A DNA stretch of 63,970 nt from Acidobacteriota bacterium (GTDB taxonomy: Bacteria; Acidobacteriota; Thermoanaerobaculia; Thermoanaerobaculales; Sulfomarinibacteraceae): contig JAHECW010000007.1 of assembly GCA_024641545.1 (NCBI GenBank), positions 1 through 63,970 on the forward strand, read 5' to 3'. Shown one piece after another: positions 23,823-36,668 of this stretch. A program made the translations under genes and the position numbers. The stretch's first letter is position 1, and every line of letters begins with the position of its first letter. The notes below the pieces were generated by a model. That model worked only from the letters and a program-made list of their open reading frames with translations, was not told the origin of the DNA and did no database searches.

Positions 23823-25262
23823 CTACGGCGTCGTGCTCGACCAGGCCCCGGTGTCGTTGGATTCGAAACCATCCGCGAAAATTTCGGTGAACCCGGTGAC
23901 CGTGTGGCCCACGTCCTTGAACTGGGCTGGAGTGAGGTCCAGTTGGTCGAAGACATCGACGCTGGTGAACGGCTCCATCAACAGATCGGGCGAGGCCGTG
24001 ACGTCCCAGTGGGAGATCGATGAACCCGGCGCTACCGTTGTGGGCGCGTAGAGCAGGGCGAGTCCCGAGGCGTGGACACCGAGACGATTGTTGACCCGCA
24101 GGATGCCGCTGACCCCCGGCAACTCCGCTTCGATGGTGGCGCCGTCGTTCTGGCCGAGCGCCACCACGGGGATGGTCACCGCGCCGCCGTCGACCCCCGC
24201 CCCCATGAGCACGAGGACGGTGCCGTCGCGGTCGTTGGCGATCACGGCTGCACTCGCGCCGGCGTTCTCGGAGTTGAGCGCCTTGAGCCCGAACTCGCAG
24301 TTGCCGCGATTCATGATGGCGATCCTTCCCGGTGTGAAGCCGACCAGCGGCCCACAGGCGTCCGAGGGTGTCGCCGAACCGGTGTTGACGAGCTCGAACT
24401 CGCCCGACATTTCATCGGGAGGCGCTCCTCCGAAACCGGCGCCGAGGGCGCCATAGGTTCCAGCGATGCCGGGTGGTGAGGTGACTTCGAGGTCCATCGC
24501 CCCGGCAAAGAAGGTGGTCGGGACCTCCGCCGTGACGTTCGGACCGTCCCACGCGAGGTTGCCGTCGTTGGTCGCCGACGCCGCCCGCTGCGCGTTGCTC
24601 ATCTCGGTCCAATGCAGCCCGGCAGTCATGTCCAGGATGTAGTAGTCGAAGATCCCGGGAGCGCCGAAGTAGGGGACCCCGGTCGAGGAGTTGACGAAGC
24701 TCGCGAAACCGAGCCCGTGACCCATTTCGTGCAGCACGACCGGAAACAGATCCTCCGCCCCGGCAGGTTCGTTGCCGTCGAGGCCGTAGTAGAAACCCGG
24801 CGGCGTGCACTGCGCCGGATCGTCCCAATCGCTGTTGTAGGTGATGAAGAAGTCGGCGTTGCCCGGATTCTGGTCGGTTCCCGTGATCGAGTCGGCGATG
24901 GCGCTGTGATAGAAGACGTTCGGAACCGGCGCGCCGGGGAAGTTCATGTACGCCGTCCCCGGGCTGGTTGATCCGAGCACGTTGCAGTTGCCCATCGGAT
25001 TGAACCGGGCGAGGATCCTGATGTCCACCGAACTGACGACCCTCTGGGCCCAGGCATCGGCGACCGCTTCGAGCACGATGAGCCGTTGCGCGCCGAGGGT
25101 GGTGCCCGTGTTGCCTCCGACCGGCGTGGCCGGGGTCGTGTCGTTGAGCCCCTCGCCCGGACCATCGCCGTTGACGATGACGAAATTCGCGGCCGCCCCG
25201 ACGCCGGGAGACAGCAGCATGGTGAGGATTGCGAGCGCGACGAGATATCTGGTTTTCATCAT
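23823..25262 (-). CDS. Secreted PA-domain zinc metalloprotease
   Basis: Signal peptide; VVLHEMGHGLGF; PA domain (IAIMNRGNCEFGLKALN..AGASAAVIAN); GSSISHWD..LLMEP; conserved tail IFADGFESNDTGAWSSTTP. Confidence 0.88.
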   Translation of the reverse strand: MMKTRYLVALAILTMLLSPGVGAAANFVIVNGDGPGEGLNDTTPATPVGGNTGTTLGAQRLIVLEAVADAWAQRVVSSVDIRILARFNPMGNCNVLGSTSPGTAYMNFPGAPVPNVFYHSAIADSITGTDQNPGNADFFITYNSDWDDPAQCTPPGFYYGLDGNEPAGAEDLFPVVLHEMGHGLGFASFVNSSTGVPYFGAPGIFDYYILDMTAGLHWTEMSNAQRAASATNDGNLAWDGPNVTAEVPTTFFAGAMDLEVTSPPGIAGTYGALGAGFGGAPPDEMSGEFELVNTGSATPSDACGPLVGFTPGRIAIMNRGNCEFGLKALNSENAGASAAVIANDRDGTVLVLMGAGVDGGAVTIPVVALGQNDGATIEAELPGVSGILRVNNRLGVHASGLALLYAPTTVAPGSSISHWDVTASPDLLMEPFTSVDVFDQLDLTPAQFKDVGHTVTGFTEIFADGFESNDTGAWSSTTP

Positions 25263-25269
25263 TGCCCCC

Positions 25270-25755
25270 TCACTCGGCCACGGCCGTGTCGGCCTGGTCG
25301 TCGGCGTGCTCCTTCTGGTACTCATCGAGCCCGACGACGAACGCGATCGCCGCATCGAGGTCCCGAAAACAGCCGCGGGCACGGGTGCCGTCGAGGTTGG
25401 TCCTCGCGACATGGACGTCGCGCATGGCGCCGTTGCTCTCGCCGCGCACCGTCCCGTCGGCGGCGGTTGCGACATCGGCTTCCACCGGCCACCCGAAGTG
25501 GGGGGCGAGCTCGAGGCGAAGCATGGCGATCCGTGCGTGGGTCGCCACGACGACCTCACCGGTCCGGGAGTCGCGGTACTTCAGATCCCCCGCGGCGATG
25601 CGTTCATCCAACGCGATCATCGAGGCGGACCTGCCGACACTCTCGCTCAACGGGTCAGCCGCGGACGCCGGCGTGACGAGAGCCAGAGTTGTGACTGTCA
25701 ATATCATCGCGGCGCACAACGACATGCACACCGACATCTGGGCGGTTGTTCTCAT
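25270..25755 (-). CDS. Small secreted protein, post-PEP-CTERM-1-domain-like
   Basis: Signal peptide; YRDSRTGEVVVAT...AADGTVRG...VHVARTNLDGTRARGC pattern; ends 7 nt before the protease start. Confidence 0.65.
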   Translation of the reverse strand: MRTTAQMSVCMSLCAAMILTVTTLALVTPASAADPLSESVGRSASMIALDERIAAGDLKYRDSRTGEVVVATHARIAMLRLELAPHFGWPVEADVATAADGTVRGESNGAMRDVHVARTNLDGTRARGCFRDLDAAIAFVVGLDEYQKEHADDQADTAVAE

Positions 25756-26111
25756 GATTTCCCCCGTTTTTCCGCCGGTCGGAACGGGGCCGTTGAAAAC
25801 CGGGAAACAAGACCACCTCGTGCCCGTCTTCGGCCGATACGAACCCCTACCACCGGCGCATCTACTCCATTGTTGTATCGCGGCACGGCCGGAAGGTCAA
25901 ACAACCGAGTCCGTCCCGGCCCGCAGGTCTCGCCAGCGGTTCGACTTCGGCCGACGATGCACCGCCCGAGGACATCCTGTCTCGGTTCGGCCGCAGCGCC
26001 CGGTCGCCCTCGCGACGAAACCCGGGGAGAAGTGCGGGCTCAACCCTTGCGGGCACGCACCTGCCGTCATACTCTGCCGTCGGCGCGCCGCGCCCGGTTG
26101 GAGGTCCTGCA

Positions 26112-28565
26112 ATGAAAGCCCGTCTTCTGATCCTGGGATTGATCTCGATCGCCCTGCTGAGCACCACCACCGGCCCGGTCTATGCAACCGAGCCGCCGAC
26201 CAACGAGTGTTCGATCACCGTTGTCCGCGCCTGGTTCAGCAGCCGCGCCCAGGTCGAGGCCTTCGCCGCCCATGACGAACCCTGGGAGGTCCACCACGAC
26301 AAGGGGTGGATGCTGGTCGGCGCCGACGCGGACAGCCTCCGGCTCCTGCTCGATCTGGGTTTCGACATCGAGATCGACGAGGCGCGAACCGCCGAGATCT
26401 GCGCGCCGAGAAAACGTCGTCCGGATCAGATCGAGGGCATCCCGGGCTACGCCTGCTACCGAACCGTCGAGGAGACCTTTCAGACCGCGCAGAACCTGGT
26501 GACGAACCACCCGGATCTGGCGTCGTTGATCGATGCCGGCGATTCTTGGGAGAAGGTGACGCCCGGCGGCAGCCCGGGCTACGACATGAAGGTCCTTCGG
26601 CTCACCAACGCCAACGTCGCCGGAACCCCGCCGGCCGGTTTCACGGGCAAACCGCGTCTCTTCGTCACCTCGGCGATCCACGCCCGCGAGTACACCACGG
26701 CCGAGCTCATGACCCGTTTCGCCGAGTACCTGGTCAGCAACCACGGTACCGACGCCGACGCGACGTGGCTGCTCGACGAACATGAAATCCACCTCATGCT
26801 GCACACCAACCCGGACGGCCGCAAACAGGCCGAGACCGGGCTGTCATGGCGCAAGAACACCAACGAGAACTACTGCTCCCCGACATCGAGCTCCCGCGGC
26901 GCCGACCTCAACCGCAACTTCGAGTTCCAGTGGGGGTGCTGTGGCGGCTCGAGCGGCGACCAGTGCTCGGCCACCTACCGCGGCCCTGCAACCGCCTCGG
27001 AACCCGAGGTCCAGGCGGTCCAGACCTACGCCCGGTCGATCTTTCCCGATCAGCGCGACCCCGCGCTGGGGGCCGCCGCCCCGGCCGACGCGACGGGGAT
27101 GTACATCGACATCCACTCCTACTCCGAGCTGGTTCTCTGGCCGTGGGGTTTCACGTCCACAGCAACCGGCAACGGGACCGCGCTCCAGACCCTCGGCCGC
27201 AAGCTCGCCTTCTTCAACGGATACGAACCTGATCAGGCCATCGGCCTCTACCCCACCGACGGCACCACCGACGACTTTGTCTACGGCGATCTCGGGGTGG
27301 CCGCCTACACCTTCGAGCTCGGCAACTGGTTCTTCGAGGACTGCATCGATTTCGAATCGACGATTCTCCCCGATAACCTCGCGGCGCTGATCTACGCCGC
27401 CAAGGTCGTGCGCACGCCGTACCTCAGCCCGGCCGGCCCCGAGATCACCGACGCCGCGGCAACCGCCGCGGTCGTCGCGCCCGGCGATCCCGTCGCCATC
27501 CTCGCCAACGCCGACGATTCCCGATTCAACAACTCGAACGGGACCGAGCCGACCCAGCCGGTTGCCGCGGCCGAGCTCTTCATCGACGCACCGCCGTGGC
27601 AAGCGGGGGCGAGCGCCATCGCCATGATCGCGACCGACGGCGCCTTCGACACCGCCATCGAACCGATTCAGGGCGAGATCGACACCACCGGGTTGGCCGA
27701 CGGCAGACACACGGTCTATGTCCACGCCCGGGACGCGGGCGGGAACTGGGGGCCGGTCAGCGCCGTCTTCGTTTGGATCCTCGATCCGGGCACCGCCGCC
27801 CACATCGCCGGCAACGTCACCGCCGTCGGCGGCGGCTCGCCCCTGACGGCAACCGTGGCCAGCGGCATCTTCACCACCCAATCCGATCCCGGCACCGGCG
27901 CCTACGATCTGAGGCTTCCGGAGGGAACGTACGACGTCACCGCTGCAGCGGAAGGCTACGGCAGCCAGACCGTGACCGCGGTCGCCGCCGCCCCCGGGGT
28001 CATCACTCCCCTCGATTTCGTCCTCACGCCCTACGAGATCGTCCTCGCCGACGCCGTCGAAACCGGCAATCTCGGTTGGACGGCCGAGGGTCAGTGGGCG
28101 ATCACCGAAGAGGCATCGGCGAGCCCCAGCCACTCCTGGACCGACAGCCCGGGCGGTGTCTACGGCAACTACTGGGATGCCTCCCTGACGTCGCCCGTGC
28201 TCGATTTTCTCGATGTCGCCGGGGTCACCCTCGAGTTCGCCCACATTTTCGATCTCGAGAGCGGGTACGACTACGCCCTCGTGGAGACCTCGGTTGACGG
28301 TGGCGCCACCTGGTCGACCGCGGCATCGTTCAACGGCCTCAACCATACGGTCTGGGAGACCGTCGAGATCGATCTCGGCAACCTCGACCACGTCGCCGAT
28401 GCCAGGGTCCGGTTCCGGATCGACACCGACGTCTCAATCACCGAGGACGGCTGGCACATCGACGACATCGTCATCCGCGGCTTCGCCGAGCCCCCGCCGG
28501 GGCTGGTCTTCCGCGACCGATTCGAGACCGGCGACACCTCGGCGTGGAGCGCGGTGGTGCCGTAA
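26112..28565 (+). CDS. Secreted M14 zinc carboxypeptidase with C-terminal beta-sandwich domains
   Basis: IHAREY, NPDG, WRKN, GADLNRNF, SEPE, IDIHSYS, YTFELG; tail VFRDRFETGDTSAWSAVVP. Confidence 0.92.
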   Translation: MKARLLILGLISIALLSTTTGPVYATEPPTNECSITVVRAWFSSRAQVEAFAAHDEPWEVHHDKGWMLVGADADSLRLLLDLGFDIEIDEARTAEICAPRKRRPDQIEGIPGYACYRTVEETFQTAQNLVTNHPDLASLIDAGDSWEKVTPGGSPGYDMKVLRLTNANVAGTPPAGFTGKPRLFVTSAIHAREYTTAELMTRFAEYLVSNHGTDADATWLLDEHEIHLMLHTNPDGRKQAETGLSWRKNTNENYCSPTSSSRGADLNRNFEFQWGCCGGSSGDQCSATYRGPATASEPEVQAVQTYARSIFPDQRDPALGAAAPADATGMYIDIHSYSELVLWPWGFTSTATGNGTALQTLGRKLAFFNGYEPDQAIGLYPTDGTTDDFVYGDLGVAAYTFELGNWFFEDCIDFESTILPDNLAALIYAAKVVRTPYLSPAGPEITDAAATAAVVAPGDPVAILANADDSRFNNSNGTEPTQPVAAAELFIDAPPWQAGASAIAMIATDGAFDTAIEPIQGEIDTTGLADGRHTVYVHARDAGGNWGPVSAVFVWILDPGTAAHIAGNVTAVGGGSPLTATVASGIFTTQSDPGTGAYDLRLPEGTYDVTAAAEGYGSQTVTAVAAAPGVITPLDFVLTPYEIVLADAVETGNLGWTAEGQWAITEEASASPSHSWTDSPGGVYGNYWDASLTSPVLDFLDVAGVTLEFAHIFDLESGYDYALVETSVDGGATWSTAASFNGLNHTVWETVEIDLGNLDHVADARVRFRIDTDVSITEDGWHIDDIVIRGFAEPPPGLVFRDRFETGDTSAWSAVVP

Positions 28566-28653
28566 CCGCAACGCCTGAACTTTCCCTTTCCTGGTGGGTC
28601 GACCGCGACGGGACTGCTCGCGTTCGGATACGATGACTCACGGAGGATGCTGC

Positions 28654-30276
28654 ATGACCCGCCATCGATTCGTCGACACGACCGCTCTCGTGCTTGCCGC
28701 GGCACTCGGCATCGCTGGCGGCGTCCGCGCTGACCAGCCCTCCCCCATCCCTCTCGAGACGCCCGATGATCTCTACCTCGAGGTCGATCCGTCATCGCTG
28801 GCAACCGAGCCCTCGACGCGAGCGATGCGGGGCAGCCGGGTCAGCGTTCAGGTCAACGTCGACCGCAACGGTTTCAACATCGTCGGTGATGCGGCCAACG
28901 AACCCTCCATGGCGGTTGACCCGACCAACCCCAACCGCCTTGCCATCGGCTGGCGCCAGTTCGACACCATCAGCTCCAACTTCCGCCAGGCCGGCTGGGG
29001 ATTCAGCACCGACGGCGGACGCAGTTGGACCTTTCCCGGCGTGCTCGAGCGCGGCGTCTTCCGTTCCGACCCGGTGCTCGATTTCGACGACGCCGGGCGG
29101 TTCTACTACAACAGCCTTCGGGCAGAGGCCTCCGACTTCTGGTGCGAGGTCTACGCCTCCGAAACCGGCGGCTTCTCGTGGCACGAGCCGGTCTTCGCCC
29201 ACGGCGGCGACAAGCAGTGGATGAGCGTCGATCGGACGGGCGGCATCGGCGACGGCAATATCTACAGCCATTGGACCTCCTACTGGGGGGCGACCGGCGA
29301 CAACGCCTTCAACCGTTCCACCGACCACGGAGCCACCTTCGACTATCCAGCCGTGATGCCGGGCTCTCCCTACTGGGGCACGACAACCGTGGGGCCCGAC
29401 GGCACGGTCTATGTCGTCGGTCTCGCCCAGACCGGACCGCTGCCCATCGTCGTCGCCTGGTCGACCACGGCCGAGGACCCGATGACCCCCCTCGCCATGG
29501 AGGGCTCGTCGTATCTCGATCTCGGCGGCCTCCCGGCATCGTTCATCCCCGACAGCCCGAACCCCGAGGGCCTGCTCGGGCAGATCTGGGTCGCCGCCGA
29601 TCACTCGGGCGGCCCGAACCACGGCAACATCTACGTCGTCGGCTCGGTGGATCCACCGGGCCCGGACCCCCTCGACCTCCATTTCATCCGCTCCACCGAC
29701 GGCGGTCAGACCTGGGAAACACCGGTCACCATCAACGATGACCCCGCCGGCGGCAACGCCTGGCAGTGGTTCGGCACCATGTCGGTGGCGCCCGACGGCC
29801 GCATCGACGTGATCTGGAACGATACCCGGAACGACCCGTCGGGTTATGACTCCGAGCTCCACTACTCCTTTTCCTTGGATGGCGGTCAGACCTGGTCGGC
29901 GAACGAAGCGCTCTCACCCGCCTTCGACCCGCACCTCGGCTGGCCCAACCAGAACAAGATGGGCGACTACTACGAGATGGTATCCGACCGCACCGGCGCC
30001 GACATCGCGTGGGCGGCGACCTTCAACGGCGGACAGGATGTTTACTACCTGAGAATTGGGGACCGCGACTGCAACGGAAATTCCATCGGCGATTCGATCG
30101 AACCGGACACCGACCACGACGGGATCATCGATGACTGCGACAACTGCCCGGCGACCGCCAACCCCCGGCAGACCGACAGCGACAACAACGGGACCGGTAA
30201 CGCCTGCGACAGCCTCATCTTCGGCGACGGCCTGGAATGGGGCAGCGACGCGGCGTGGAGGGCGGTGGCGCCCTAG
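28654..30276 (+). CDS. Secreted BNR/Asp-box (sialidase-fold) protein with TSP3-like Ca-binding repeats
   Basis: Repeated STDGGxSW/TW boxes; DTDHDGIIDDCDNCP..QTDSDNNGTGNACD; tail IFGDGLEWGSDAAWRAVAP; GGAGG RBS before ATG 28654. Confidence 0.85.
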   Translation: MTRHRFVDTTALVLAAALGIAGGVRADQPSPIPLETPDDLYLEVDPSSLATEPSTRAMRGSRVSVQVNVDRNGFNIVGDAANEPSMAVDPTNPNRLAIGWRQFDTISSNFRQAGWGFSTDGGRSWTFPGVLERGVFRSDPVLDFDDAGRFYYNSLRAEASDFWCEVYASETGGFSWHEPVFAHGGDKQWMSVDRTGGIGDGNIYSHWTSYWGATGDNAFNRSTDHGATFDYPAVMPGSPYWGTTTVGPDGTVYVVGLAQTGPLPIVVAWSTTAEDPMTPLAMEGSSYLDLGGLPASFIPDSPNPEGLLGQIWVAADHSGGPNHGNIYVVGSVDPPGPDPLDLHFIRSTDGGQTWETPVTINDDPAGGNAWQWFGTMSVAPDGRIDVIWNDTRNDPSGYDSELHYSFSLDGGQTWSANEALSPAFDPHLGWPNQNKMGDYYEMVSDRTGADIAWAATFNGGQDVYYLRIGDRDCNGNSIGDSIEPDTDHDGIIDDCDNCPATANPRQTDSDNNGTGNACDSLIFGDGLEWGSDAAWRAVAP

Positions 30277-30288
30277 GGGCGAAGTCCG

Positions 30289-30331
30289 CGGCAGGGGCGG
30301 CGGCAGCGGCAGGGGCAGCGGCAGGAGCAGC
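30289..30331. repeat. Hexamer tract (GGCAGG/GGCAGC)
   Basis: GGCAGGGGCGGCGGCAGCGGCAGGGGCAGCGGCAGGAGCAGC just after the stop codon. Confidence 0.75.
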
Positions 30332-30576
30332 GCGCCGAGCACGCGGGAACAAACGCTCACCGGGGGGTGCCGGGTTTGACAATGTGCCCCAGTAGCCTAC
30401 CGGCTCCGTGCCCCGTCCCGCACAATGTCATACTGGGCAACCCTCGCGGCACAACCTCCCGGTGCATCTCTCCCGGCCGCGAAACAGGCCGCCGGCGCGC
30501 GATCAGCGTGGTCGCAGTCCTTCCCGTTCTGCTCTCCGACCACGCTGATCGCGCGACGCTGGGACGCCGAAGGCGG

Positions 30577-30708
30577 ACCGGAAGGCCGGAGCTGAAGGAA
30601 CCGCTTGCGCCGCCCGCGCCCGTGCCCGATGGTGCCAAAACACTACGGCATCCTGCGGGCGGGACGCCCGCACCACAATGGGCGGCCCGGAATGCCGGAA
30701 CTGAAGGA
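30577..30708. repeat. REP-containing repeat module shared with 15594-15740
   Basis: Hairpin TGCGGGCGGGACGCCCGCACCACAA (30654-30678) inside a 50-bp identity to 15656-15705; flanked by CCGGAAGGCCGGAGCTGAAGG-like units. Confidence 0.88.
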
Positions 30709-30737
30709 AACGCGGTCTCATCACCTACAATAAGGGC

Positions 30738-33374
30738 GTGCGGATCATCACGACCCATCTTTCCGCCGATTTTGACGCGTTCGCTGCGGCGGTGTGTGCG
30801 GTTCGGCTCTATCCCGACCACAGGGTGCTTTTCCCCGGCTCGCACGAGGCCGCGGTCCGGCGCTTCATCTCCGACACCGGCTTCCCCTTCCCCGAGCTCA
30901 AGCTCCGCCGCGCCCGCCGCGAAACCATCGAGCATGCCGTGGTGGTCGACACCTCGACCCAATCCCGCCTCGGCGAGGTCTGGGACCTCATCCGGCGCGA
31001 CAACTGCCCCATCGATCTCATCGATCACCACTCAGAGGAACGCATGGGCGCCATTGGCGCCGACACCACCATTTTCCGCCCGGTGGGCGCAACCTGCACC
31101 ATCATCGCGGGGCTCTTCGCCGACCGGGGCATCGAGCCCACCGAGGAGGAAGCCTCGCTGCTGATGATGGGCATCTACGAGGACACCGGCGGGCTTTCCT
31201 ACCGTGAAACGACGGCTGAGGATCTCCGCGTGGTCGCGCGCCTCGTCGAGTTCGGCGGGTCGCTGGCCTGGGTCCGCCGCTGGGTCCTCAAGGGTCTCCA
31301 GCCCGAACAGCTCTCGCTGCTCAACCGCATCGTCGAAGCGGCGGAAGAGTTTTCCATCAACGACATCCCCGTCTCCCTCGCCATGGTCGAGGTCGATCGC
31401 TACCACGAAGAGGCGGCGTACGTCGTCCACCGCTGGGTCGAGACCTTCGAGCTCCCGGTCGGGATCGTGATGCTCGTCCAGCCCCCCAATATCAATCTCA
31501 TCCTCCGCGCCCGCATCCAGGGTCTCCACCTGGGCGAGGTGGCGCAGCAGTTCGGCGGCGGCGGGCACGCCACCGCCGCGTCCGCTCGGGTTGCGGATCG
31601 CATGCCGGTCGAACTTCGCGAAGCGCTCATCCTCGCCCTCACCGAGGCCCTCCCTCCCCCTGCCACCGCCATCGACGTGGCCAATCGGCACATTTTTTCC
31701 GTCAATGCCGATGACGATGTCGAGACCAGCAAAGAGAGGATGAACCAGCTTCGACTCAACGCCATGCCGGTCAAAGGGGCCGACGGCAAGCTGACCGGCA
31801 TGGTCACCCGCCAGATCCTCGACCGGGCACTCGGCCACGGGATGGCGGCGCGGCCGGTCCGGTCCATCATGCAGCCGGATCTGCCCGTCGTCGCGGCATC
31901 GGCCTCGCTCGGCGATCTGCGCGATCTCTTCCTCGAACGCTCGTACCGATTCGTCGTGGTCGAAGATGCCGACCGGGCGGTCGGCATCGTCACCCGAATG
32001 GAGCTTTTTCGCCGCTTCTTCGAACGCCAGCACGCAGCCGGATCGGTCCTCGATCACCGGATGGCCGGCGCACGACCCGTCAGCCAGTCGATCTCCCGCC
32101 TCCTGCGGGAAAAGACCGCCCCCTGGGTGCGCGAGCTTCTCGGCACGGCCAAGGCCGTGGCGGACACCGTCGGCATCGCCGTCTACCTGGTCGGCGGCAT
32201 GGTCAGAGACCTCCTCCTGGGTCGGCAGAACGAGGATGTCGACCTCGTCGTCGAGGGATCCGGCATCGACTTCGCTTATGCCCTTGCGGCCTATGTCGGC
32301 GGACGGTGCCACCCGCACACACCTTTCCTGACCGCGGTCGTCACGCTCCCGGACGGCCATCGAGTCGACATCGCCTCGGCTCGAACCGAGTTCTACCGGA
32401 CCCCGGCCGCGCTGCCCGAAGTGGAGACTTCGCTCATCCGTCAGGATCTCTATCGCCGCGATTTCACCATCAACTCCCTCGCGGTCGCGCTGCACGGGGA
32501 GAAACACGGCGAGCTGGTGGACTTCTTCGGCGGCAGGATGGATCTCCAGCGCCGCGAGATCCGGGCCCTGCACTCGCTGTCGTTCATCGACGACCCGACC
32601 CGCGCCATCCGCGCCGTGCGGTATGCCCGCCGGCTCGATTTCACCATCGCCCCGGATACCCGATATCTGATCACGACCGCGGTCGGGGAGGGGGTCTTCG
32701 AGCGCCTTTCCGGACAACGGCTGCGCCGGGAGCTCGAAACCCTCCTCGCCGAAGATCACGCGACCTTTGCCATCGAGTTGCTCGCCGACCTCGGTCTGCT
32801 GCCGGCCATCTGCGAAGGACTGATCTGGTCGGCAGGCGTCCGCGCGACGCTCTTGGAAGTCGAGAGTCAACTCGGCTGGTTCGAGCTCGAGGAACTCGGA
32901 CCACCGCCCGAACCGTGGCTCCTCTTTCTCGGCGGTCTCGCCATCCAGGCGGGCGATGGTGTCACTCGCCGGATGGCCGATCGCCTTCTGCTCACGGGAG
33001 ACCACCGTCGAAGGATGCTCGACCTCGAACGTGGGGTGGCGGAGGTCCGGCAGGCAGGCGATTCATCGCTTCGACGATCGTCCCGGGTCCGGGCGGTGGA
33101 GCAACAGCACTCGGAGGTGATCCTCCTCGCCATGGCGGGAATCGATCTCGCCGCGCGGCGGAGGCTCGCGGACGCCGTCGCGGCATCGGTCCGCGTCCGA
33201 CCCCAGGTCAGGGGTCGGCAACTCATCGATGCCGGGGTCGAGCCCGGTCCGTGGGTGGGTCGGGCACTGCTTCAGACCCGAGACGCCATCGTGGATGGCG
33301 AGATCAACGCGGATCGATCCTTCGATTTCGCACGGGCCTCGGCCGCGAGGTACCAGGAGGAGGGGTCGGAATGA
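30738..33374 (+). CDS. cca: tRNA nucleotidyltransferase with DHH/DHHA1 and CBS domains
   Basis: THLSADFDA, IDHH, GGGGHATAASA, two CBS domains, YLVGGMVRDLLL..DVDLVVEG, DLYRRDFTINSLA, SFIDDPTRAIRAVRY. Confidence 0.92.
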   Translation: MRIITTHLSADFDAFAAAVCAVRLYPDHRVLFPGSHEAAVRRFISDTGFPFPELKLRRARRETIEHAVVVDTSTQSRLGEVWDLIRRDNCPIDLIDHHSEERMGAIGADTTIFRPVGATCTIIAGLFADRGIEPTEEEASLLMMGIYEDTGGLSYRETTAEDLRVVARLVEFGGSLAWVRRWVLKGLQPEQLSLLNRIVEAAEEFSINDIPVSLAMVEVDRYHEEAAYVVHRWVETFELPVGIVMLVQPPNINLILRARIQGLHLGEVAQQFGGGGHATAASARVADRMPVELREALILALTEALPPPATAIDVANRHIFSVNADDDVETSKERMNQLRLNAMPVKGADGKLTGMVTRQILDRALGHGMAARPVRSIMQPDLPVVAASASLGDLRDLFLERSYRFVVVEDADRAVGIVTRMELFRRFFERQHAAGSVLDHRMAGARPVSQSISRLLREKTAPWVRELLGTAKAVADTVGIAVYLVGGMVRDLLLGRQNEDVDLVVEGSGIDFAYALAAYVGGRCHPHTPFLTAVVTLPDGHRVDIASARTEFYRTPAALPEVETSLIRQDLYRRDFTINSLAVALHGEKHGELVDFFGGRMDLQRREIRALHSLSFIDDPTRAIRAVRYARRLDFTIAPDTRYLITTAVGEGVFERLSGQRLRRELETLLAEDHATFAIELLADLGLLPAICEGLIWSAGVRATLLEVESQLGWFELEELGPPPEPWLLFLGGLAIQAGDGVTRRMADRLLLTGDHRRRMLDLERGVAEVRQAGDSSLRRSSRVRAVEQQHSEVILLAMAGIDLAARRRLADAVAASVRVRPQVRGRQLIDAGVEPGPWVGRALLQTRDAIVDGEINADRSFDFARASAARYQEEGSE

Positions 33375-34009
33375 AATGCCGGATCGGCGCCGTGACCGCA
33401 GCGTGGCTGCTGGTCGCGTTGCTCTCGGCAACGGCCCAGGCGCCGATGCCGGTCGTTGAGAGGATCACCGACCATCGCGGCCGAATCACCCGCGTCACCC
33501 TTTTTTCCAACCACGTGGTCATCGTGTCGATCCGATCCGACGACGACAATTTCATCCACCAGGCGACCCTGAACTTCGACGAGTACATGGTCTACCTCCA
33601 GGCCTTCGAGAAATGCGCCCGGGAAATCGGCAACGAGCCGGTCACCTCCGATGTGGAAAGCCGGGACAGCTCCACGAAGGTCGTCCTCCACGTCGGTCCG
33701 GACCCGCCGCGGATCATCGAGTACTCACCGCTGGCTTCCCTCGACCTCCCGACCGGCAAGATCGCCTCGATGATCGACGACATCCAGAATCGGGCCCTCG
33801 CCGCCCTCCCGGGCGAGTTCGAGATCAACCAGTGGAGGCCCGCCATCGGCGACCGGGTCGAACTTCGCCAGGGCGGTCAGGCCTCGGTCACGGCAATCGA
33901 CGATGACGGCACCATTCTCCTGAGCCAGGTCGACGGCCCGGTGTCGTACACCGTCGCCAAGGACAGCCGCGTCAATGTCGTTCTCAGGGTCATCGAGCCC
34001 GCGCCATGA
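33371..34009 (+). CDS. Secreted hypothetical protein (212 aa)
   Basis: ATGA overlaps at both ends; signal peptide MKCRIGAVTAAWLLVALLSATAQA. The true start lies inside the track ORF 32306..34009. Confidence 0.8.
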   Translation: MKCRIGAVTAAWLLVALLSATAQAPMPVVERITDHRGRITRVTLFSNHVVIVSIRSDDDNFIHQATLNFDEYMVYLQAFEKCAREIGNEPVTSDVESRDSSTKVVLHVGPDPPRIIEYSPLASLDLPTGKIASMIDDIQNRALAALPGEFEINQWRPAIGDRVELRQGGQASVTAIDDDGTILLSQVDGPVSYTVAKDSRVNVVLRVIEPAP

Positions 34010-34569
34010 GGGTGACGGGCGGCGCATGGCGATCGCGGCGGATCCGGGGGCCATCCAAGGGCCAGAGGCTCCGGCCGACGCCCGATTCCATGCGCGAACG
34101 CGGTTTTGCCGTCCTCGGCGACACCGTCGTCGGCGCTCGGGTGCTCGATCTTTTTGCCGGCACCGGCGCGGTGGGGATTGAAGCCCTCTCGCGGGGGGCG
34201 GCCACGGCGGTCTTTGTCGACGCCCACCGGAGCGCCGCAACGCTGATCAGGGCGAACCTGGAATCGCTCGGGGTCGGGCGTGATCGCGGCCTGGTGATGA
34301 ACCGGCAGGCAGCACGAGCAGTCGTCGAGCTCGAGCAGCGCGGCCGGATCTTCGATCTCGTGTGGGCCGATCCCCCCTTCGAGAAGTGGCCCGATGGCCT
34401 TGAATCCCTGGTCGCGGCGGTGGCCGCCGGGATCACCACCGGCGACGCGGTTCTGTGCCTCGAATGTCCCGCCAAAGCCGATGTCGCTGCGGTCCTCCCC
34501 GACGGCCTCTCGATCGAACGAGATCTCGCGGGCGGTGCCTCGAGAGTGGTCATCCTGCGCAGGCGGTAG
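34006..34569 (+). CDS. rsmD: 16S rRNA (guanine966-N2) methyltransferase
   Basis: MRVTGG..LRPTPDSMRE..VLDLFAGTGAVGIEALSRGA..FDLVWADPPF. Confidence 0.93.
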   Translation: MRVTGGAWRSRRIRGPSKGQRLRPTPDSMRERGFAVLGDTVVGARVLDLFAGTGAVGIEALSRGAATAVFVDAHRSAATLIRANLESLGVGRDRGLVMNRQAARAVVELEQRGRIFDLVWADPPFEKWPDGLESLVAAVAAGITTGDAVLCLECPAKADVAAVLPDGLSIERDLAGGASRVVILRRR

Positions 34570-34604
34570 ATCATCGATGCCGGATTCACGCCGTTGGAGA
34601 TCCG

Positions 34605-34669
34605 TTTTTGCCCCCGGCCGCACTACAACCGGGGGCAAAAAAGAACCGCGGGACCCTTGGGTCCCGCGG
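34605..34669. terminator. Bidirectional terminator plus a second hairpin between convergent genes
   Basis: TTTTTGCCCCCGG-N11-CCGGGGGCAAAAA, then CCGCGGGACCC-TT-GGGTCCCGCGG. Confidence 0.8.
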
Positions 34670-34714
34670 ACATAGGACGTCGGTCCGCTCGGAGGGCGAG
34701 ACGCGGTGCCGGCG

Positions 34715-35122
34715 TCACACTGTGTACAAAGATCCCGAAATCACGGCTCCCTGGGTTACGGCAACGGGTCCTTCCTGAACCTGGTCGTTGGCGCAGCAGT
34801 TGCAGATCAGCTGTCTGAGGGTGGTCATCCGATCCTGGTCGAGATCGACGAACTCGAGGCCTGAACGGTAGGCCACCTTGCATCCGGTATCGGTCTTGGT
34901 GAGTTGGGCGCGGCAGCGGCGGACTTCCGCCTTCAAGACGAAGTCACTGCCGAAGGAGGAGACCCTGAGTTCGCAGAGGGTTGCGGGGGGGAGCCCGAGC
35001 CGGGTTTCAACCTGGACGCCGCCTTCGGAGATATCGACGACTCTGAAATCCATGGTCGACTTCACTTTTCCGGTGATGTCGTAGTTCGGTTGGTGCCTCG
35101 GATGGCGGCGGCGTTCTTCCAT
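34715..35122 (-). CDS. Single-domain PilZ protein
   Basis: ERRRHPR (RxxxR) and DISEGG (D/NxSxxG) c-di-GMP motifs; GLEF; GGAGG RBS before ATG 35122. Confidence 0.88.
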   Translation of the reverse strand: MEERRRHPRHQPNYDITGKVKSTMDFRVVDISEGGVQVETRLGLPPATLCELRVSSFGSDFVLKAEVRRCRAQLTKTDTGCKVAYRSGLEFVDLDQDRMTTLRQLICNCCANDQVQEGPVAVTQGAVISGSLYTV

Positions 35123-35145
35123 GTCAGCCTCCATGCCAGTCCAAT

Positions 35146-35161
35146 AGCAAGGATGGTGCCA
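35146..35161 (-). promoter_or_regulatory. Sigma54 promoter of the PilZ gene
   Basis: Minus strand TGGCACCATCCTTGCT matches TGGCAC-N5-TTGCW, about 24 nt upstream of the start. Confidence 0.8.
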
Positions 35162-35320
35162 GCTTTCCCATCGCCGCGGCTGATCATCGGGAGGCGCCGG
35201 CTGTCCGATCCTGGTACACGCCGTCTCAGTACGTTTCACCTGGCGCGGGCGGGGGGCAGCCGGGCGAGCCCCAACCCTGCAACACCGCCGAACGCAACTC
35301 ACTCACACGACTGAAATTAC

Positions 35321-35353
35321 AAAAAGACCCGAGGGGCGCCGACCCTTCGGGTC
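35321..35353 (-). terminator. Rho-independent terminator
   Basis: Minus strand GACCCGAAGGG..CCCCTCGGGTC-TTTTT downstream of the serine protease. Confidence 0.75.
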
Positions 35354-35378
35354 AGGTTGAAACGGGGGTTGTGCCGGA

Positions 35379-36668
35379 TCAGGGGACGGCCGAACTCCAG
35401 GCGCCGGTGGTGCCGGACTCGAACCCATCGGAAAAGATGTCGTTGGTATTGGCGATCGCGCTCGGAGGCAGGTTCGACCCGAGATCGGCAATCACCTGCT
35501 CGATGAGCACGCCGGTGTTGATGCTCGTGCTGCCGCAGTGGTGAAGCGCAATGATCTGCTGGTCGTCATAGGACACCACCGGCGAGCCCGAGGAGCCTCC
35601 CTGCGTGTCGGCGCGGTAGCCCATGTCCGGTCCGGGTCGCGAGCCGCAGCCGCCGTAGTTTTTTGAAACAACAAACGGCCAACCGTCCGGGTCCAACCCT
35701 TCGGAGCTGAAAACGGCGATCCGCTTGCCCCAGCCGGAGGGGTGCTGGGGAATGTAGAGCCGCTCTCCGATCACCCCACCGGTCGGCCGCAAGGTGAAGA
35801 AGCCGTAGGTCGACGATGGGTTGACCGACAGCTGGACGAGGGCGTAGTCATAGTCGTAGGAGGTCTGGATCAGAGTTCCGGACGTGGTGACGATGGTCCC
35901 CGGACATTGCAACTGCCAGCAGTTGGTCGAGCAGTCGGCGCCCTCGGCCATGAACTCGTAGTTGGTGTTGCTCGCCGCCCCCTGGGTGCTGATGCAGTGG
36001 TTGTTGGTCAACATGTGGCCGTCGTTCCCCACCAACCAGCCGGTGCAGAGCGAGGATCCGTTGATGAGGAGCCTCGCCACCGCTCTGCTCTTGTCATAGA
36101 CGTTCGGCTCAGAAACCTCGTAGCACGGCGCCCACTCGGAGTCGTCCGCCCCGATGATGGCCTCCGGAGCGCTGCCTGCACCCGTTTCCCCGGGCGTGAA
36201 CCCACGGGCAAATCGGTCGATGACGTAGCCGAACCCCCCGCTCCCACCGGCTGCCCAGAGCTCGACAACGGCCGTGTCGCCGGCGATGTGGATGCCCCAG
36301 AAACCGTCGTCGTCGAGACCGAGGTCGTCGACGCCGTACCTCTCGTAGCGCCACGATCTCGATCCATCCGGCGACCGCACCACGACGAAGTCCCCCTCGC
36401 CGAGTTCGAGGCGACCGAAGTGCGGGCAGATGTACGACGCATTCGGATAGTGGATGACGTCGGACCACACCAATTGCGCCGCCCCGATATCGCTGCTCCC
36501 CAGGTACGGGTTGGGCGAGGCATAGCTCTCGTGGATGTCTTCACCGACAATCTCCACGGTCGGCGCCGGTTGGCTCGCGTCCGCCGGTCTGGTGGCGGCT
36601 GCGGCGGCCGGACCCGCGGCGGTCAACAAGAATGTCAATACGAATACGACCAGGATTGCACGGTACAT
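35379..36668 (-). CDS. Secreted trypsin-like (S1) serine protease with N-terminal pro-domain
   Basis: Signal peptide; CTGWLV..LTNNHCI, DYDYALV, DTQGGSSGSPV; tail IFSDGFESGTTGAWSSAVP. Confidence 0.92.
   Translation of the reverse strand: MYRAILVVFVLTFLLTAAGPAAAAATRPADASQPAPTVEIVGEDIHESYASPNPYLGSSDIGAAQLVWSDVIHYPNASYICPHFGRLELGEGDFVVVRSPDGSRSWRYERYGVDDLGLDDDGFWGIHIAGDTAVVELWAAGGSGGFGYVIDRFARGFTPGETGAGSAPEAIIGADDSEWAPCYEVSEPNVYDKSRAVARLLINGSSLCTGWLVGNDGHMLTNNHCISTQGAASNTNYEFMAEGADCSTNCWQLQCPGTIVTTSGTLIQTSYDYDYALVQLSVNPSSTYGFFTLRPTGGVIGERLYIPQHPSGWGKRIAVFSSEGLDPDGWPFVVSKNYGGCGSRPGPDMGYRADTQGGSSGSPVVSYDDQQIIALHHCGSTSINTGVLIEQVIADLGSNLPPSAIANTNDIFSDGFESGTTGAWSSAVP

Follow-up and report, generated by a model that had tools for sequence, protein, structure and literature searches.

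Four secreted proteins with a common C-terminal tail

Within the window, the whole stretch of 63,970 nucleotides analysed here from a sediment-type Acidobacteriota genome, four genes encode secreted proteins that end in a common tail (Table 1). A reading of the DNA sequence alone had placed these four tails correctly, each spanning 19 codons plus a stop, and the N-terminal signal peptides that it ascribed to the four proteins are canonical-looking when the translations are inspected by eye. The stop-to-stop open reading frame of the PA-domain protease extends over 23823-25559, and translation of the BNR protein likely starts at an internal MTRHRF. The tail of the BNR protein is the most divergent of the four, with L replacing F6 and W replacing S8.

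Table 1. Tail-bearing genes of the window and the tails that they encode.
Feature	Position	Strand	Remarks
PA-domain zinc metalloprotease, secreted	23823..25262	-	479 aa from MMKTRY start; Pfam PA domain; HExxH visible; tail carrier
Tail 1, IFADGFESNDTGAWSSTTP	23826..23882	-	Stop at 23823-23825; tail HMM match
M14 carboxypeptidase, secreted	26112..28565	+	817 aa; Peptidase_M14, CarboxypepD_reg and MAM-like domains; tail carrier
Tail 2, VFRDRFETGDTSAWSAVVP	28506..28562	+	28506-28565 with stop
BNR/Asp-box protein, secreted	28594..30276	+	ORF of 560 aa; thrombospondin type 3 repeats (TSP_3); tail carrier
Tail 3, IFGDGLEWGSDAAWRAVAP	30217..30273	+	30217-30276 with stop
Trypsin-like serine protease (S1, Trypsin_2), secreted	35379..36668	-	429 aa; tail carrier
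Tail 4, IFSDGFESGTTGAWSSAVP	35382..35438	-	35379-35438 with stop; exact DNA-pattern match

Sequence, position and carriers of the tail

The tag extends well beyond the four proteins noticed initially: the genome as a whole encodes about 109 that carry it, of which the window shows a sample. A profile HMM built from 80 strict tails and searched at a cut-off of at least 18 bits against the 94,408 ORFs of 25 aa or longer in the six-frame translation gave 121 matches in the 5.4-Mb genome: 109 lie no more than 5 residues from the stop, 11 are non-terminal and one runs off a contig end. These 109 ORFs have the C-terminus [LIV]F-x-D-G-F-E-[ST]-G-[DN]-T-x-x-W-S-x-x-x-P-stop or a close match to it. At the DNA level, a pattern for F-x-D-G-F-E-x-G-x4-W matched the genome 94 times, versus no matches for the reversed control pattern, an abundance that chance would not produce. 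A regular expression for the core found 123 matches genome-wide, of which 89 stop exactly 5 residues past the Trp; another 8 are separated from the stop by more than 12 residues, and Pro is the last residue in 87 of the 115 core matches lying within 12 residues of it. The profile of the 80 tails has eight near-invariant positions and three invariant aromatic residues. What is conserved throughout is a 14-residue core ending at Trp, whereas only some lineages have the S-x-x-x-P extension; in the lineage represented by genome G045, 14 of 30 sampled sites carry the 14-residue form, ending at Trp without Pro.

Proteins bearing the tail are diverse. BLAST clustering sorted the 97 called tail proteins into 66 unrelated families, and a Pfam scan of 39 representatives returned matches at E<=1e-5 for 25, all of extracytoplasmic type, and none for the other 14. 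The matched families include M14, S1 and S8 peptidases, MAM, beta-propellers, beta-helix, FG-GAP, Kelch, LRR, multihaem cytochrome, CAP and glutaminyl cyclase; several secreted M14 carboxypeptidases of the genome itself are among the carriers. A signal-peptide heuristic was positive in 89 of the 109 tail ORFs versus 1178 of 2681 control ORFs, and a stricter rule in 62 of 97 tail proteins versus 855 of 4200 controls. These counts bear out the earlier proposal that the tail is a portable C-terminal tag, found on Sec-exported proteins whose folds are unrelated, and cytoplasmic carriers, which would have spoken against it, did not appear among the representatives with Pfam matches.

A minority of copies, about 6–17% (8 of 123 core matches in the source genome; in G045, 5 of the 30 sampled), have an internal or N-terminal position. 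Several of the non-terminal copies in both genomes are followed by Pro-rich linkers, one copy sits directly behind the signal peptide of a GH114 protein and another lies upstream of a TM helix and an RRRRR anchor. Such placements are easier to reconcile with a docking module that tolerates different positions than with a signal dependent on a free carboxyl end.

Physically, the 109 tails are hydrophilic and acidic. Their best 12-residue KD window does not exceed 0.91, and they contain no TM helix; net charge ranges from -1 to -5, Lys and Arg are absent from 88, and only one tail has two or more, so that no basic cluster is present. In the AF2 model of the S1 protease (mean pLDDT 85.9, with a confident core), tail residues 412-429 fall below a pLDDT of 50, and the tail is thus predicted to be unstructured in this one model.

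We also considered that the tail could form the start of a larger LamG-like jelly-roll, as its opening beta-strand or hairpin, or the integral end of the preceding domain. A 'F-x-D-D-F-E-x-G...W' pattern may be similar to the strand with which LamG-type domains usually begin, and some homologues end right after '[LI]FxDxFE', as though this stretch were part of the core. However, the same 19 residues stand behind 66 unrelated families, no Pfam domain reaches into the tail, and the AF2 model leaves it unpacked. The copies far from a stop, in the source genome and in G045, are followed by a linker rich in Pro, by other sequence or by low-complexity read-on, with no recognisable jelly-roll, and a LamG-like fold is ruled out where 109 of the 121 copies stop within 5 residues. 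The unrelated carriers, the missing domain overlap and the predicted disorder largely refute such a structural remnant, to which we assign very little probability. The tail is not a piece of a larger domain, a result that would have spoken against the initial proposal.

Two tail genes carry an orphan second tail-coding copy just past their stop, in frame at C196 and in another frame at C306. These copies suggest duplication or recombination at tails, as would be expected if the 57 bp encoding the tail were a mobile or recombinogenic cassette kept for nucleic-acid reasons, with the peptide incidental. Yet synonymous sites vary freely, Ser8 and Ser15 are each encoded by both TCN and AGY codons, all three stop codons are in use among the tails, and frame and stop distance are conserved; furthermore, the same peptide is kept in a lineage of lower GC and different codon choice. 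This codon analysis largely refutes a DNA-level repeat, which retains next to no probability, and the codon patterns point to selection on the tail at the protein level.

Module exchange, distribution and candidate partners

In sequence comparisons, homologues of two carrier families exchange the tail at the same junction for a T9SS CTD, a PPC domain, an IPTL-CTERM anchor or a Cys-rich module. Among the best 120 homologues of the S1 protease, 37 end in the tail, 20 of Myxococcota type have PPC (PF04151) in its place and 3 have the T9SS CTD (PF18962); PPC itself, a beta-sandwich pro-domain of about 70–100 aa, is ruled out as the identity of the tail, being absent from the window proteins. The best 120 homologues of the PA protease include 64 with the tail, 39 with PF13860 and/or PF18962, 4 with Cys knots and one with an IPTL-like anchor. 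In orthologues of this protease from the same class, the tail is replaced by Cys-rich modules or by DUF11 repeats plus an IPTL-type anchor. Within the source genome, a tail-bearing ORF on contig C33 shares 85% identity across 232 aa with a neighbour (13399-14649) that ends in IPTL-CTERM (PF18203, 24.7 bits).

The terminal Pro raises another explanation, namely that the tail has no part in sorting and acts as a C-terminal cap or pro-peptide through which the proteolysis, latency or folding of secreted enzymes is controlled. Many carboxypeptidases are resisted by a C-terminal Pro, the residue that ends 87 of the 115 near-terminal core matches; the genome's own secreted M14 carboxypeptidases are tailed, and the Myxococcota homologues have at the tail position PPC, a known cleaved pro-domain. 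However, many carriers (LRR, FG-GAP, Kelch, cytochromes and CAP) are not enzymes, at the G045 sites noted above the tag stops with Trp and lacks the Pro, a cap would have no need of the conserved F-x-D-G-F-E-x-G-x4-W core, and interchange with TM anchors and T9SS CTDs is not expected of it. We therefore consider a stability or processing element distinctly improbable.

The tail is sporadically distributed, as a dedicated system would be expected to be. At least 5 copies (range 5–124) were found in 32 of 201 genomes of the class, labelled Thermoanaerobaculia; two families lack it altogether (0 of 48 genomes in f5 and 0 of 27 in f4), and a third, f10, is divided by genus. Outside the class, the strict form occurs as single copies only, in 4 of 362 genomes of a phylum sample, and a dedicated machine is improbable in these single-copy genomes. 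The similar endings in other bacteria that had been mentioned initially occur mainly in related Acidobacteriota; a Marinicella homologue has a truncated '...LIFADDFE' at its end.

The sequence-only reading had also invoked a machine that would use the tag for outer-membrane export, surface anchoring or beta-strand docking. Six candidate partners were checked by presence/absence, and none follows the tail. A T2SS-type secretin was present in 29 of 30 genomes, S41 in 30 of 30 and CsgG in 28 of 29, whatever the tail status, while C25 peptidases occurred in 17 of 17 tail-positive genomes but also in 10 of 18 tail-negative ones; four C25 proteins are encoded in the source genome, two of them tail-bearing. 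Neither the PA protease nor the one candidate for a scaffold-like receptor, the repeat protein DUF7933 (x8), tracks the tail. Tail-negative relatives lack the tagged enzymes themselves, so that the presence/absence profile is confounded; no M14 carboxypeptidase orthologue, for example, was found in 5 tail-negative genomes. No recurrent gene neighbour of the tails emerged in the source genome or in low-copy genomes.

Alternatively, the tail may be an autonomous retention peptide that keeps enzymes near the cell or substrate with no dedicated machine, its ligand being the cell's own LPS or exopolysaccharide, bound via Ca2+ bridges, or else the surface of a mineral or particle. This possibility would accommodate the lack of a co-distributed partner among the six candidates, the single copies outside the class, the N-terminal and internal copies, and the net negative charge with three invariant aromatics, and it accords with the multihaem cytochromes and GH114 (an exopolysaccharide-type hydrolase) among the tagged proteins. 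However, eight near-invariant positions over more than 100 unrelated carriers, together with a fixed stop distance, speak for a stereospecific protein partner, and sharp genus-level presence/absence is the pattern more often shown by systems that include a dedicated component. Moreover, a lone unstructured peptide of 14–19 aa is generally a poor binder of glycans or minerals; known cell-wall-binding repeats work in arrays. An autonomous retention peptide seems unlikely to us, if less so than a cap.

Known sorting systems and a candidate pathway

No Pfam or NCBIfam model covers the tail, NCBIfam giving no match on it even at E<=10, and our literature search found no paper on it; an existing family that explains the tail would have spoken against the initial proposal. 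One of the nearest parallels is the T9SS CTD (Por_Secre_tail, PF18962/TIGR04183; PorU sortase), likewise a TM-less C-terminal signal on Sec-exported proteins of many folds. Its carriers number from dozens to more than 100 per genome, and homologues of the two window proteases have it at the junction where the tail stands. However, that CTD is a folded beta-sandwich of 70–100 aa and the tail, as had been remarked from the window, is far shorter, at 14–19 unstructured residues, and is ruled out as a CTD of this kind; PorU-type C25 peptidases are present here but do not track the tag. PF18962 had no match in the genome, and control genomes were equally silent, making this a weak negative; SprA_N (PF14349) likewise had no match in the genome, with control genomes equally silent.

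The PEP-, IPTL-, GlyGly- and MYXO-CTERM tags (exosortase, rhombosortase, myxosortase) are also short C-terminal homologies on many unrelated secreted proteins with a sporadic phylogenetic spread. Tail carriers match Haft's choice-of-anchor domains, namely choice-of-anchor Q (70.8 bits, cut-off 25, with the domain directly before the tail) and choice-of-anchor X (26.2 bits, cut-off 25), and show partial matches to the myxosortase- and rhombosortase-dependent M36 models of NCBIfam; the paralogue swap with IPTL-CTERM is a further likeness. By contrast, these tags join a motif to a TM helix and then a basic cluster, and an intramembrane enzyme processes them. PEP-CTERM is ruled out by the lack of a PEP motif in the column profile of 80 tails, the lack of a TM segment and the net negative charge. 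LPXTG, GlyGly-CTERM and MYXO-CTERM are ruled out by the absence of a TM segment, basic cluster and NCBIfam tail match, much as had been argued at the outset for PEP-CTERM, LPXTG and GlyGly-CTERM. IPTL-CTERM is ruled out for the tails, none of which PF18203 matches. Seven further proteins of the genome have an IPTL-CTERM-type end by eye.

Dockerins of the cellulosomal dockerin-cohesin system are small, mostly C-terminal, position-tolerant modules on 60–120 diverse secreted proteins per genome, with an acidic, Ca-binding-like composition, and dockerin-like docking would account for the N-terminal and internal copies with linkers. Unlike the tail, dockerins span about 70 aa and consist of a duplicated F-hand, and PF00404 is ruled out by the lack of a match in 4 + 39 carriers; nor did a cohesin-like receptor or scaffold emerge, the one scaffold-like protein examined being DUF7933. 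The curli signal (CsgA N22/CsgG, T8SS) likewise consists of a short linear stretch without structure, carried by a Sec-exported protein and read by an outer-membrane channel, and a CsgG-family gene is present in the source genome; however, CsgG transports unfolded small subunits, whereas tail carriers are large multidomain enzymes. The OMP beta-signal recognised by BAM is also C-terminal, and one tail lineage ends in an aromatic residue with Gly at -5, but the tail is Pro-terminal in the window's lineage; this signal is ruled out by carriers that, where Pfam matches exist (25 of 39), belong to soluble enzyme or repeat families with no outer-membrane beta-barrel. A T1SS C-terminal signal is ruled out by the Sec signal peptides on carriers and the absence of RTX domains in the 39 scanned.

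On the evidence of these comparisons, we consider the chances about even that the tail serves, in a restricted set of lineages, as a TM-less C-terminal tag by which Sec-exported proteins are sorted or docked. More tentatively, it could be the address label of an undescribed outer-membrane sorting or surface-attachment pathway in Acidobacteriota, read by an undescribed receptor or enzyme family. Carriers would cross the inner membrane by means of their N-terminal signal peptides, and their catalytic or binding domains would fold in the periplasm, while the acidic, aromatic tail of 14–19 residues (core [LIV]F-x-D-G-F-E-x-G-x4-W) would remain unfolded and exposed. A partner limited to tail-positive lineages might then read the tail as a short linear motif and either deliver the tagged protein into an export route across the outer membrane or, once it is exported, hold it at the cell surface, with or without cleavage of the tag. 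The S-x-x-x-P end in the window's family probably shields the tag from exopeptidases, given that M14 carboxypeptidases belong to the tagged set.

The C-terminal sorting tags LPXTG, PEP-CTERM, T9SS CTD and GlyGly-CTERM each led to a new processing or secretion machine. If the sorting-pathway reading is true, the tag would be functionally equivalent to a T9SS CTD or PEP-CTERM and, at 14 residues with no TM segment, smaller than any other C-terminal sorting signal known from diderm bacteria. Its sharp genus-level presence/absence provides an ideal profile for finding cognate genes, and if it proved portable in the laboratory it could serve as a very small targeting or docking handle. Annotation pipelines could take up a model for the tag. 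In abundant, uncultured sediment and soil Acidobacteriota, some 100 proteins, or about 2% of the proteome, bear the tag, making it a candidate for a new pathway. The marked set includes proteases and carboxypeptidases as well as putative glycan-active proteins and multihaem cytochromes, with which these bacteria act on organic matter and metals, and the rule [LIV]FxDGFExGx4W at the C-terminus thus reads this exoproteome straight from MAGs.

Census and carriers of the tail

The conserved C-terminal tail ([LIV]F-x-D-G-F-E-[ST]-G-[DN]-T-x-x-W-S-x-x-x-P-stop, with a 14-residue core through Trp) has the signature of a tag for sorting or docking at the protein C-terminus, since it is a short conserved motif whose distance from the C-terminus is fixed, is portable among many unrelated proteins, is restricted to Sec-exported proteins, alternates at one and the same junction with type IX secretion (T9SS) C-terminal domains (CTDs), IPTL-CTERM anchors and PPC domains, and is distributed sporadically at the genus level. 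The sequence-only reading had placed four such tails in the window and proposed a portable export or anchoring tag; all four positions are correct, and each range spans the 19 tail codons and a stop. The four carriers belong to unrelated Pfam families (see table), and all four have canonical-looking signal peptides, as judged by eye from the translations.

The tail is nevertheless a genome-wide class and not a trait of four proteins. In the 5.38-Mb genome (310 contigs, 99.4% complete, with the window as contig C251), a six-frame translation with a minimum ORF length of 60 aa gave 47,140 ORFs, of which 104 end in the motif as defined by a loose regular expression. A tail HMM built from 80 strict tails, searched with a cut-off of at least 18 bits against the 94,408 ORFs that reach 25 aa, gave 121 matches: 109 lay within five residues of the stop, 11 were non-terminal and one ran off a contig end. 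The DNA pattern F-x-D-G-F-E-x-G-x4-W matched 94 times versus zero for its reversed control, and reversed controls were zero in every genome and every search. Near-invariant positions are F2, D4, G5, F6, E7, G9, W14 and P19. Among 123 core matches, 89 had exactly five residues after Trp, 87 ended in Pro and 8 lay more than 12 residues from the stop. Even when the pattern was reduced to [LIVMF]F.[DN].F[ED], 103/122 occurrences in an approximate proteome were no more than 15 residues away from the C-terminus.

Tail carriers and other features of the window's genome (C251, the window; other C-numbers, other contigs)
Feature	Contig	Coordinates	Strand	Basis
PA-domain protein, visible HExxH motif; tail	C251	23823-25559 (ORF)	minus	Pfam and sequence
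M14 carboxypeptidase; tail	C251	26112-28565	plus	Pfam
BNR/Asp-box protein with TSP3 repeats; tail	C251	28594-30276	plus	Pfam
Trypsin_2 (S1) serine protease; tail	C251	35379-36668	minus	Pfam
Tail-less ORF, signal-peptide or lipoprotein-like start	C251	21505-22833	plus	
Tail-less ORF, signal-peptide or lipoprotein-like start	C251	33359-34009	plus	
Tail-less ORF, signal-peptide or lipoprotein-like start	C251	38470-39849	minus	
Large sensor histidine kinase	C251	39890-43681	minus	
Protein ending in IPTL-CTERM	C33	13399-14649		Pfam
ORF reading on past its tail	C33	12206-13451		
Multihaem c-type cytochrome with motif	C37	40331-41326		
Multihaem c-type cytochrome with motif	C193	20239-21060		
Contig end, C25 peptidase sequence	C276	3-2177		
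Contig end, C25 peptidase sequence	C268	2-1409		
Orphan tail-coding stretch	C196	3951-4200		
Orphan tail-coding stretch	C306	12701-12970		
Weak exosortase-family gene, contig end	C43	41386-41922		
Three overlapping ORFs	C117	16712-18688		

The carriers are diverse. A rough call of 4,297 genes covered 97 of the 109 tail ORFs, and with the tails removed these 97 proteins formed 66 BLAST clusters, 55 of them singletons. We scanned 39 representatives with Pfam, taking one per multi-member cluster and 28 of 29 randomly drawn singletons (the remaining one was the window's PA protein, covered by its own Pfam scan). Matches included M14, Trypsin_2, S8, InhA-like MAM, LVIVD, LRR with beta-helix, FG-GAP, Kelch, lactonase/NHL/RCC1 propellers, Omp28, cytochrome c7 with Big_9, sortilin/BNR, glutaminyl cyclase, IgGFc-binding, CAP, DUF4394 and CelD_N; 14/39 had no Pfam match at 1e-5, and no cytoplasmic housekeeping family was seen among the 39. 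A lax signal-peptide heuristic, over-permissive in that 44% of controls were positive, recognized 89/109 tail ORFs versus 1,178/2,681 control ORFs; seven of its 20 misses were cut by a contig end, and several of the misses show visible signal peptides. With a stricter heuristic, the counts were 62/97 tail proteins versus 855/4,200 controls. Lipobox-like starts were rare (4/97).

Two carriers of the motif are multihaem c-type cytochromes, the one on C193 combining cytochrome c7, Big_9 and the tail, so that the tagged set includes putative extracellular electron-transfer proteins. In addition, the ends of contigs C276 and C268 share identical protein sequence and are evidently parts of one tail-bearing C25 (gingipain-like) peptidase gene.

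Between its four tail genes, the window has housekeeping or Pfam-less genes, coding for an ASST-like protein, a YpfJ-type peptidase, a CBS/PolyA-polymerase protein, RsmD, PilZ, Ndk, dCMP deaminase, TrmB and a histidine kinase, plus three ORFs without a Pfam match. Interspersed with the tail genes are three tail-less, Pfam-less ORFs with signal-peptide or lipoprotein-like starts, one of them with a long linker rich in Pro and Thr. In the large sensor histidine kinase, the longest ORF begins with about 50 residues of Arg/Pro/Gln/Gly repeat (RPRPRP..., GQRQ...), probably a non-coding stretch upstream of the true start.

The peptide and its exchange with other C-terminal modules

The tail is hydrophilic and acidic (mean Kyte-Doolittle hydropathy -0.14; net charge -1 to -5). 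Its most hydrophobic 12-residue window does not exceed 0.91, and Lys/Arg are absent from 88/109 tails, with two or more in only one; the tail therefore lacks both a transmembrane (TM) segment and a basic cluster. Upstream of it there is no conserved linker, and the residues at the junction are variable and small. Judging from codon usage, selection acts on the peptide and not on the DNA: Ser8 and Ser15 use TCN and AGY codons alike, all three stop codons occur, synonymous positions vary, and the same peptide is kept in a lower-GC genome despite different codon choice. A repeat at the DNA level is largely excluded and is the least probable reading that we considered. In a single AlphaFold2 model, that of the window's S1 protease (54 homologues), the core was confident (mean pLDDT 85.9) and residues 412-429 had pLDDT below 50 and were unpacked against the enzyme, suggesting that the tail is unstructured; the alternative that it is a structural remnant of its carriers is likewise largely excluded, being very improbable.

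Homologues of two window proteases illustrate the exchange of the tail for other modules. Among the best 120 homologues of the S1 protease, the catalytic core ends at a common point ('...LG.NLP.SA...'), after which the tail follows in 37/120, a PPC pre-peptidase domain (PF04151) in 20/120 (those named were Myxococcota) and a T9SS CTD (PF18962) in 3/120, with poly-Pro and Cys-knot modules in others. The best 120 homologues of the PA protease carry the tail in 64 cases, PF13860 and/or PF18962 in 39, Cys-rich knots in four and an IPTL-like TM anchor in one. In PA protease orthologues from the same class, the tail is replaced by a Cys-rich domain of about 100 aa (genomes G027 and G633), by a Cys-rich module and a further domain (G215 and G717) or by DUF11 repeats and an IPTL-type anchor (G303). 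Within the window's own genome, two neighbouring ORFs on C33 share 85% identity over 232 aa, although one bears the tail and the other has an IPTL-CTERM end (PF18203, 24.7 bits, cut-off 20.8). NCBIfam matches on the carriers point in the same direction as these module swaps: choice-of-anchor Q scored 70.8 bits (cut-off 25) directly upstream of the tail and choice-of-anchor X 26.2 bits (cut-off 25), with J, B and I below cut-off, and there were partial matches to myxosortase-, rhombosortase- and T9SS-dependent M36 models, a PEP-CTERM ScyF-like NHL protein and rhombotarget A.

A further 4/120 homologues of the PA protease (gene at 23823-25262), including one Marinicella meishanensis protein, end shortly after '[LI]FxDxFE'. 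These proteins (P0204, P0185, P0214 and P0229) stop after '[LI]F-x-D/N-x-F-E/D' plus 0-5 residues, which may represent an even more reduced tag in other phyla, or chance truncation. The window's genome also encodes a second, classical C-terminal sorting class of eight proteins ending in [IV]P[TS]L...G, a TM helix and RR, one confirmed by Pfam (on C33) and seven recognized by eye (on C91, C94, C171, C225, C235, C77 and C82). The weak exosortase-family gene (26.4 bits) at the end of C43 may be their partner.

The tail falls outside every known class of sorting or secretion signal with which we compared it. Pfam (2025 copy) and NCBIfam (release 20), searched with full proteins and 29-aa tail peptides at E<=10, contain no model that covers it (the sole match, PsbI at E=0.09, is noise). 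Full-text literature searches gave nothing on the tail, and the words 'C-terminal' and 'sorting' are absent from PMC8528874. As a candidate C-terminal sorting tag, it is unusual in being TM-less, apparently unstructured and only 14-19 residues long.

Distribution and the short form

Systematic coverage came from a phylum sample and a class survey, while other phyla are represented by scattered matches. In the window's family, the loose pattern occurred in 21 of 24 other genomes (10-113 copies each) and was missing from three genera at 95-96% completeness; the sister family had a single copy in 1 of 16 genomes. Of the 401 genomes sampled across the phylum, 10 had the strict form (tail, Pro, stop): six in the window's class with 2-68 copies, and 4/362 outside the class with one copy each. 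The survey of class Thermoanaerobaculia (201 genomes, each at least 85% complete; core with G or D/E at position 5) found the core in 37 genomes, with at least five copies in 32 (falling in 9 of the 20 families sampled), low copy numbers in five, no match in 164 and a maximum of 124. The core was absent from families f5 (0/48) and f4 (0/27) despite genomes of up to 7.4 Mb, and presence and absence contrasted within families f1, f8 and f10; in f10, two genera had 93 and 43 copies and the other 27 genomes lacked the core.

A collection-wide scan matched at least 131 stretches, and 71 of 80 labels among the matches listed were of Acidobacteriota type: Thermoanaerobaculia, Holophagae, Acidobacteriota, and Ca. 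Multivoradales and Ca. Sulfomarinibacteraceae, which lie within Thermoanaerobaculia. An 8-Mb MAG labelled 'Deltaproteobacteria bacterium' (G438; L009, JAHZIX01 record) had 72 strict tails; it belongs to the window's phylum, since the sample drawn from its own phylum includes G045, G159, G164 and G170 at identical coordinates. A MAG labelled Crocinitomicaceae (G440; L062) had two strict and seven core matches, and the single locus examined was 58% GC. For either MAG, a wrong label or a mixed bin is possible. One PA protease homologue labelled Methylomirabilota has the full tail.

The genome G045, from another family, had 90 core matches but only 10 strict ones. Among 30 of its sites, 14 end right after Trp, 5 one residue later and 3 with the five-residue Pro end; 25 lie within five residues of the stop, and the other 5 are internal or N-terminal, several of them followed by Pro-rich sequence. 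These short ends indicate that the conserved unit is the 14-residue C-terminal core, with S-x-x-x-P a lineage-specific extension.

Candidate partners and possible modes of action

We give about an even chance to the tag being read by a dedicated partner, which would either pass its cargo to outer-membrane export or anchor it to the cell surface. A class-wide T2SS-type system is the one route we found for folded proteins. Export genes in the window's genome comprise a type IV pilus secretin, a T2SS-type cluster (T2SSF, T2SSM_b, secretin and two pseudopilins), one CsgG-family gene and four C25 peptidases, two of them tail-bearing (this family matched 0/14 control genomes); SprA_N, Slam (PF04575) and the T9SS CTD were not found there, and control genomes were equally silent. 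Upstream of the T2SS-type cluster, whose genes include a GspF-like gene, three ORFs overlap in different frames on C117 where an ATPase gene might be expected, and may reflect frameshifts or an error of the rough gene call.

None of the candidates compared tracked the tail, although the comparison is confounded in that the window's S1 protease went unmatched in the tail-negative relatives tested and its M14 enzyme matched there only weakly, at the domain level. The T2SS-type secretin was present in 29/30 genomes (the unpublished G064 being one of the 30), CsgG in 28/29 and S41 peptidases in 30/30. C25 peptidases occurred in 17/17 tail-positive genomes but also in 10/18 negatives, the PA-domain protease was missing from the f8 positives and found in five negatives, and a scaffold-like protein with an eight-fold DUF7933 repeat was missing from four positives and abundant in four negatives. 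Nor did a specific neighbour recur: within three genes either side of the tail genes of the window's genome we found only generic families (Ser/Thr kinases, efflux components), and 20 tail loci in low-copy genomes had in common only kinases, ABC ATPases, a histidine kinase, an aminotransferase, SOD and malate synthase. An autonomous adhesive peptide would fit the lack of a co-distributed partner, but we consider it unlikely.

Non-terminal copies bear on how the tag may act. In a GH114 hydrolase on C170, the motif directly follows the signal peptide, where the mature protein starts; on C37, a cytochrome with CxxCH motifs has a Pro/Thr linker, the motif, and then a TM helix and RRRRR; on C115, a Pro/Thr linker and further protein sequence come after the motif; and two genes on C33 continue beyond the tail. 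The N-terminal or internal copies followed by linkers, along with 60-120 carriers per genome, favor a docking (dockerin-like) version of the tag, while the fixed distance to the stop favors recognition of a free C-terminus. A role as a cap for stability or processing seems improbable.

One of the C33 ORFs runs on for 62 residues beyond P19, where the tail usually ends, and reaches into the beginning of the next gene; this may reflect a recent mutation or an assembly error. Right after the stop of two other tail genes, on C196 and C306, lies an orphan tail-coding stretch, one in frame 46 codons on and the other out of frame, suggesting that the tag spreads through duplication or recombination at tails.
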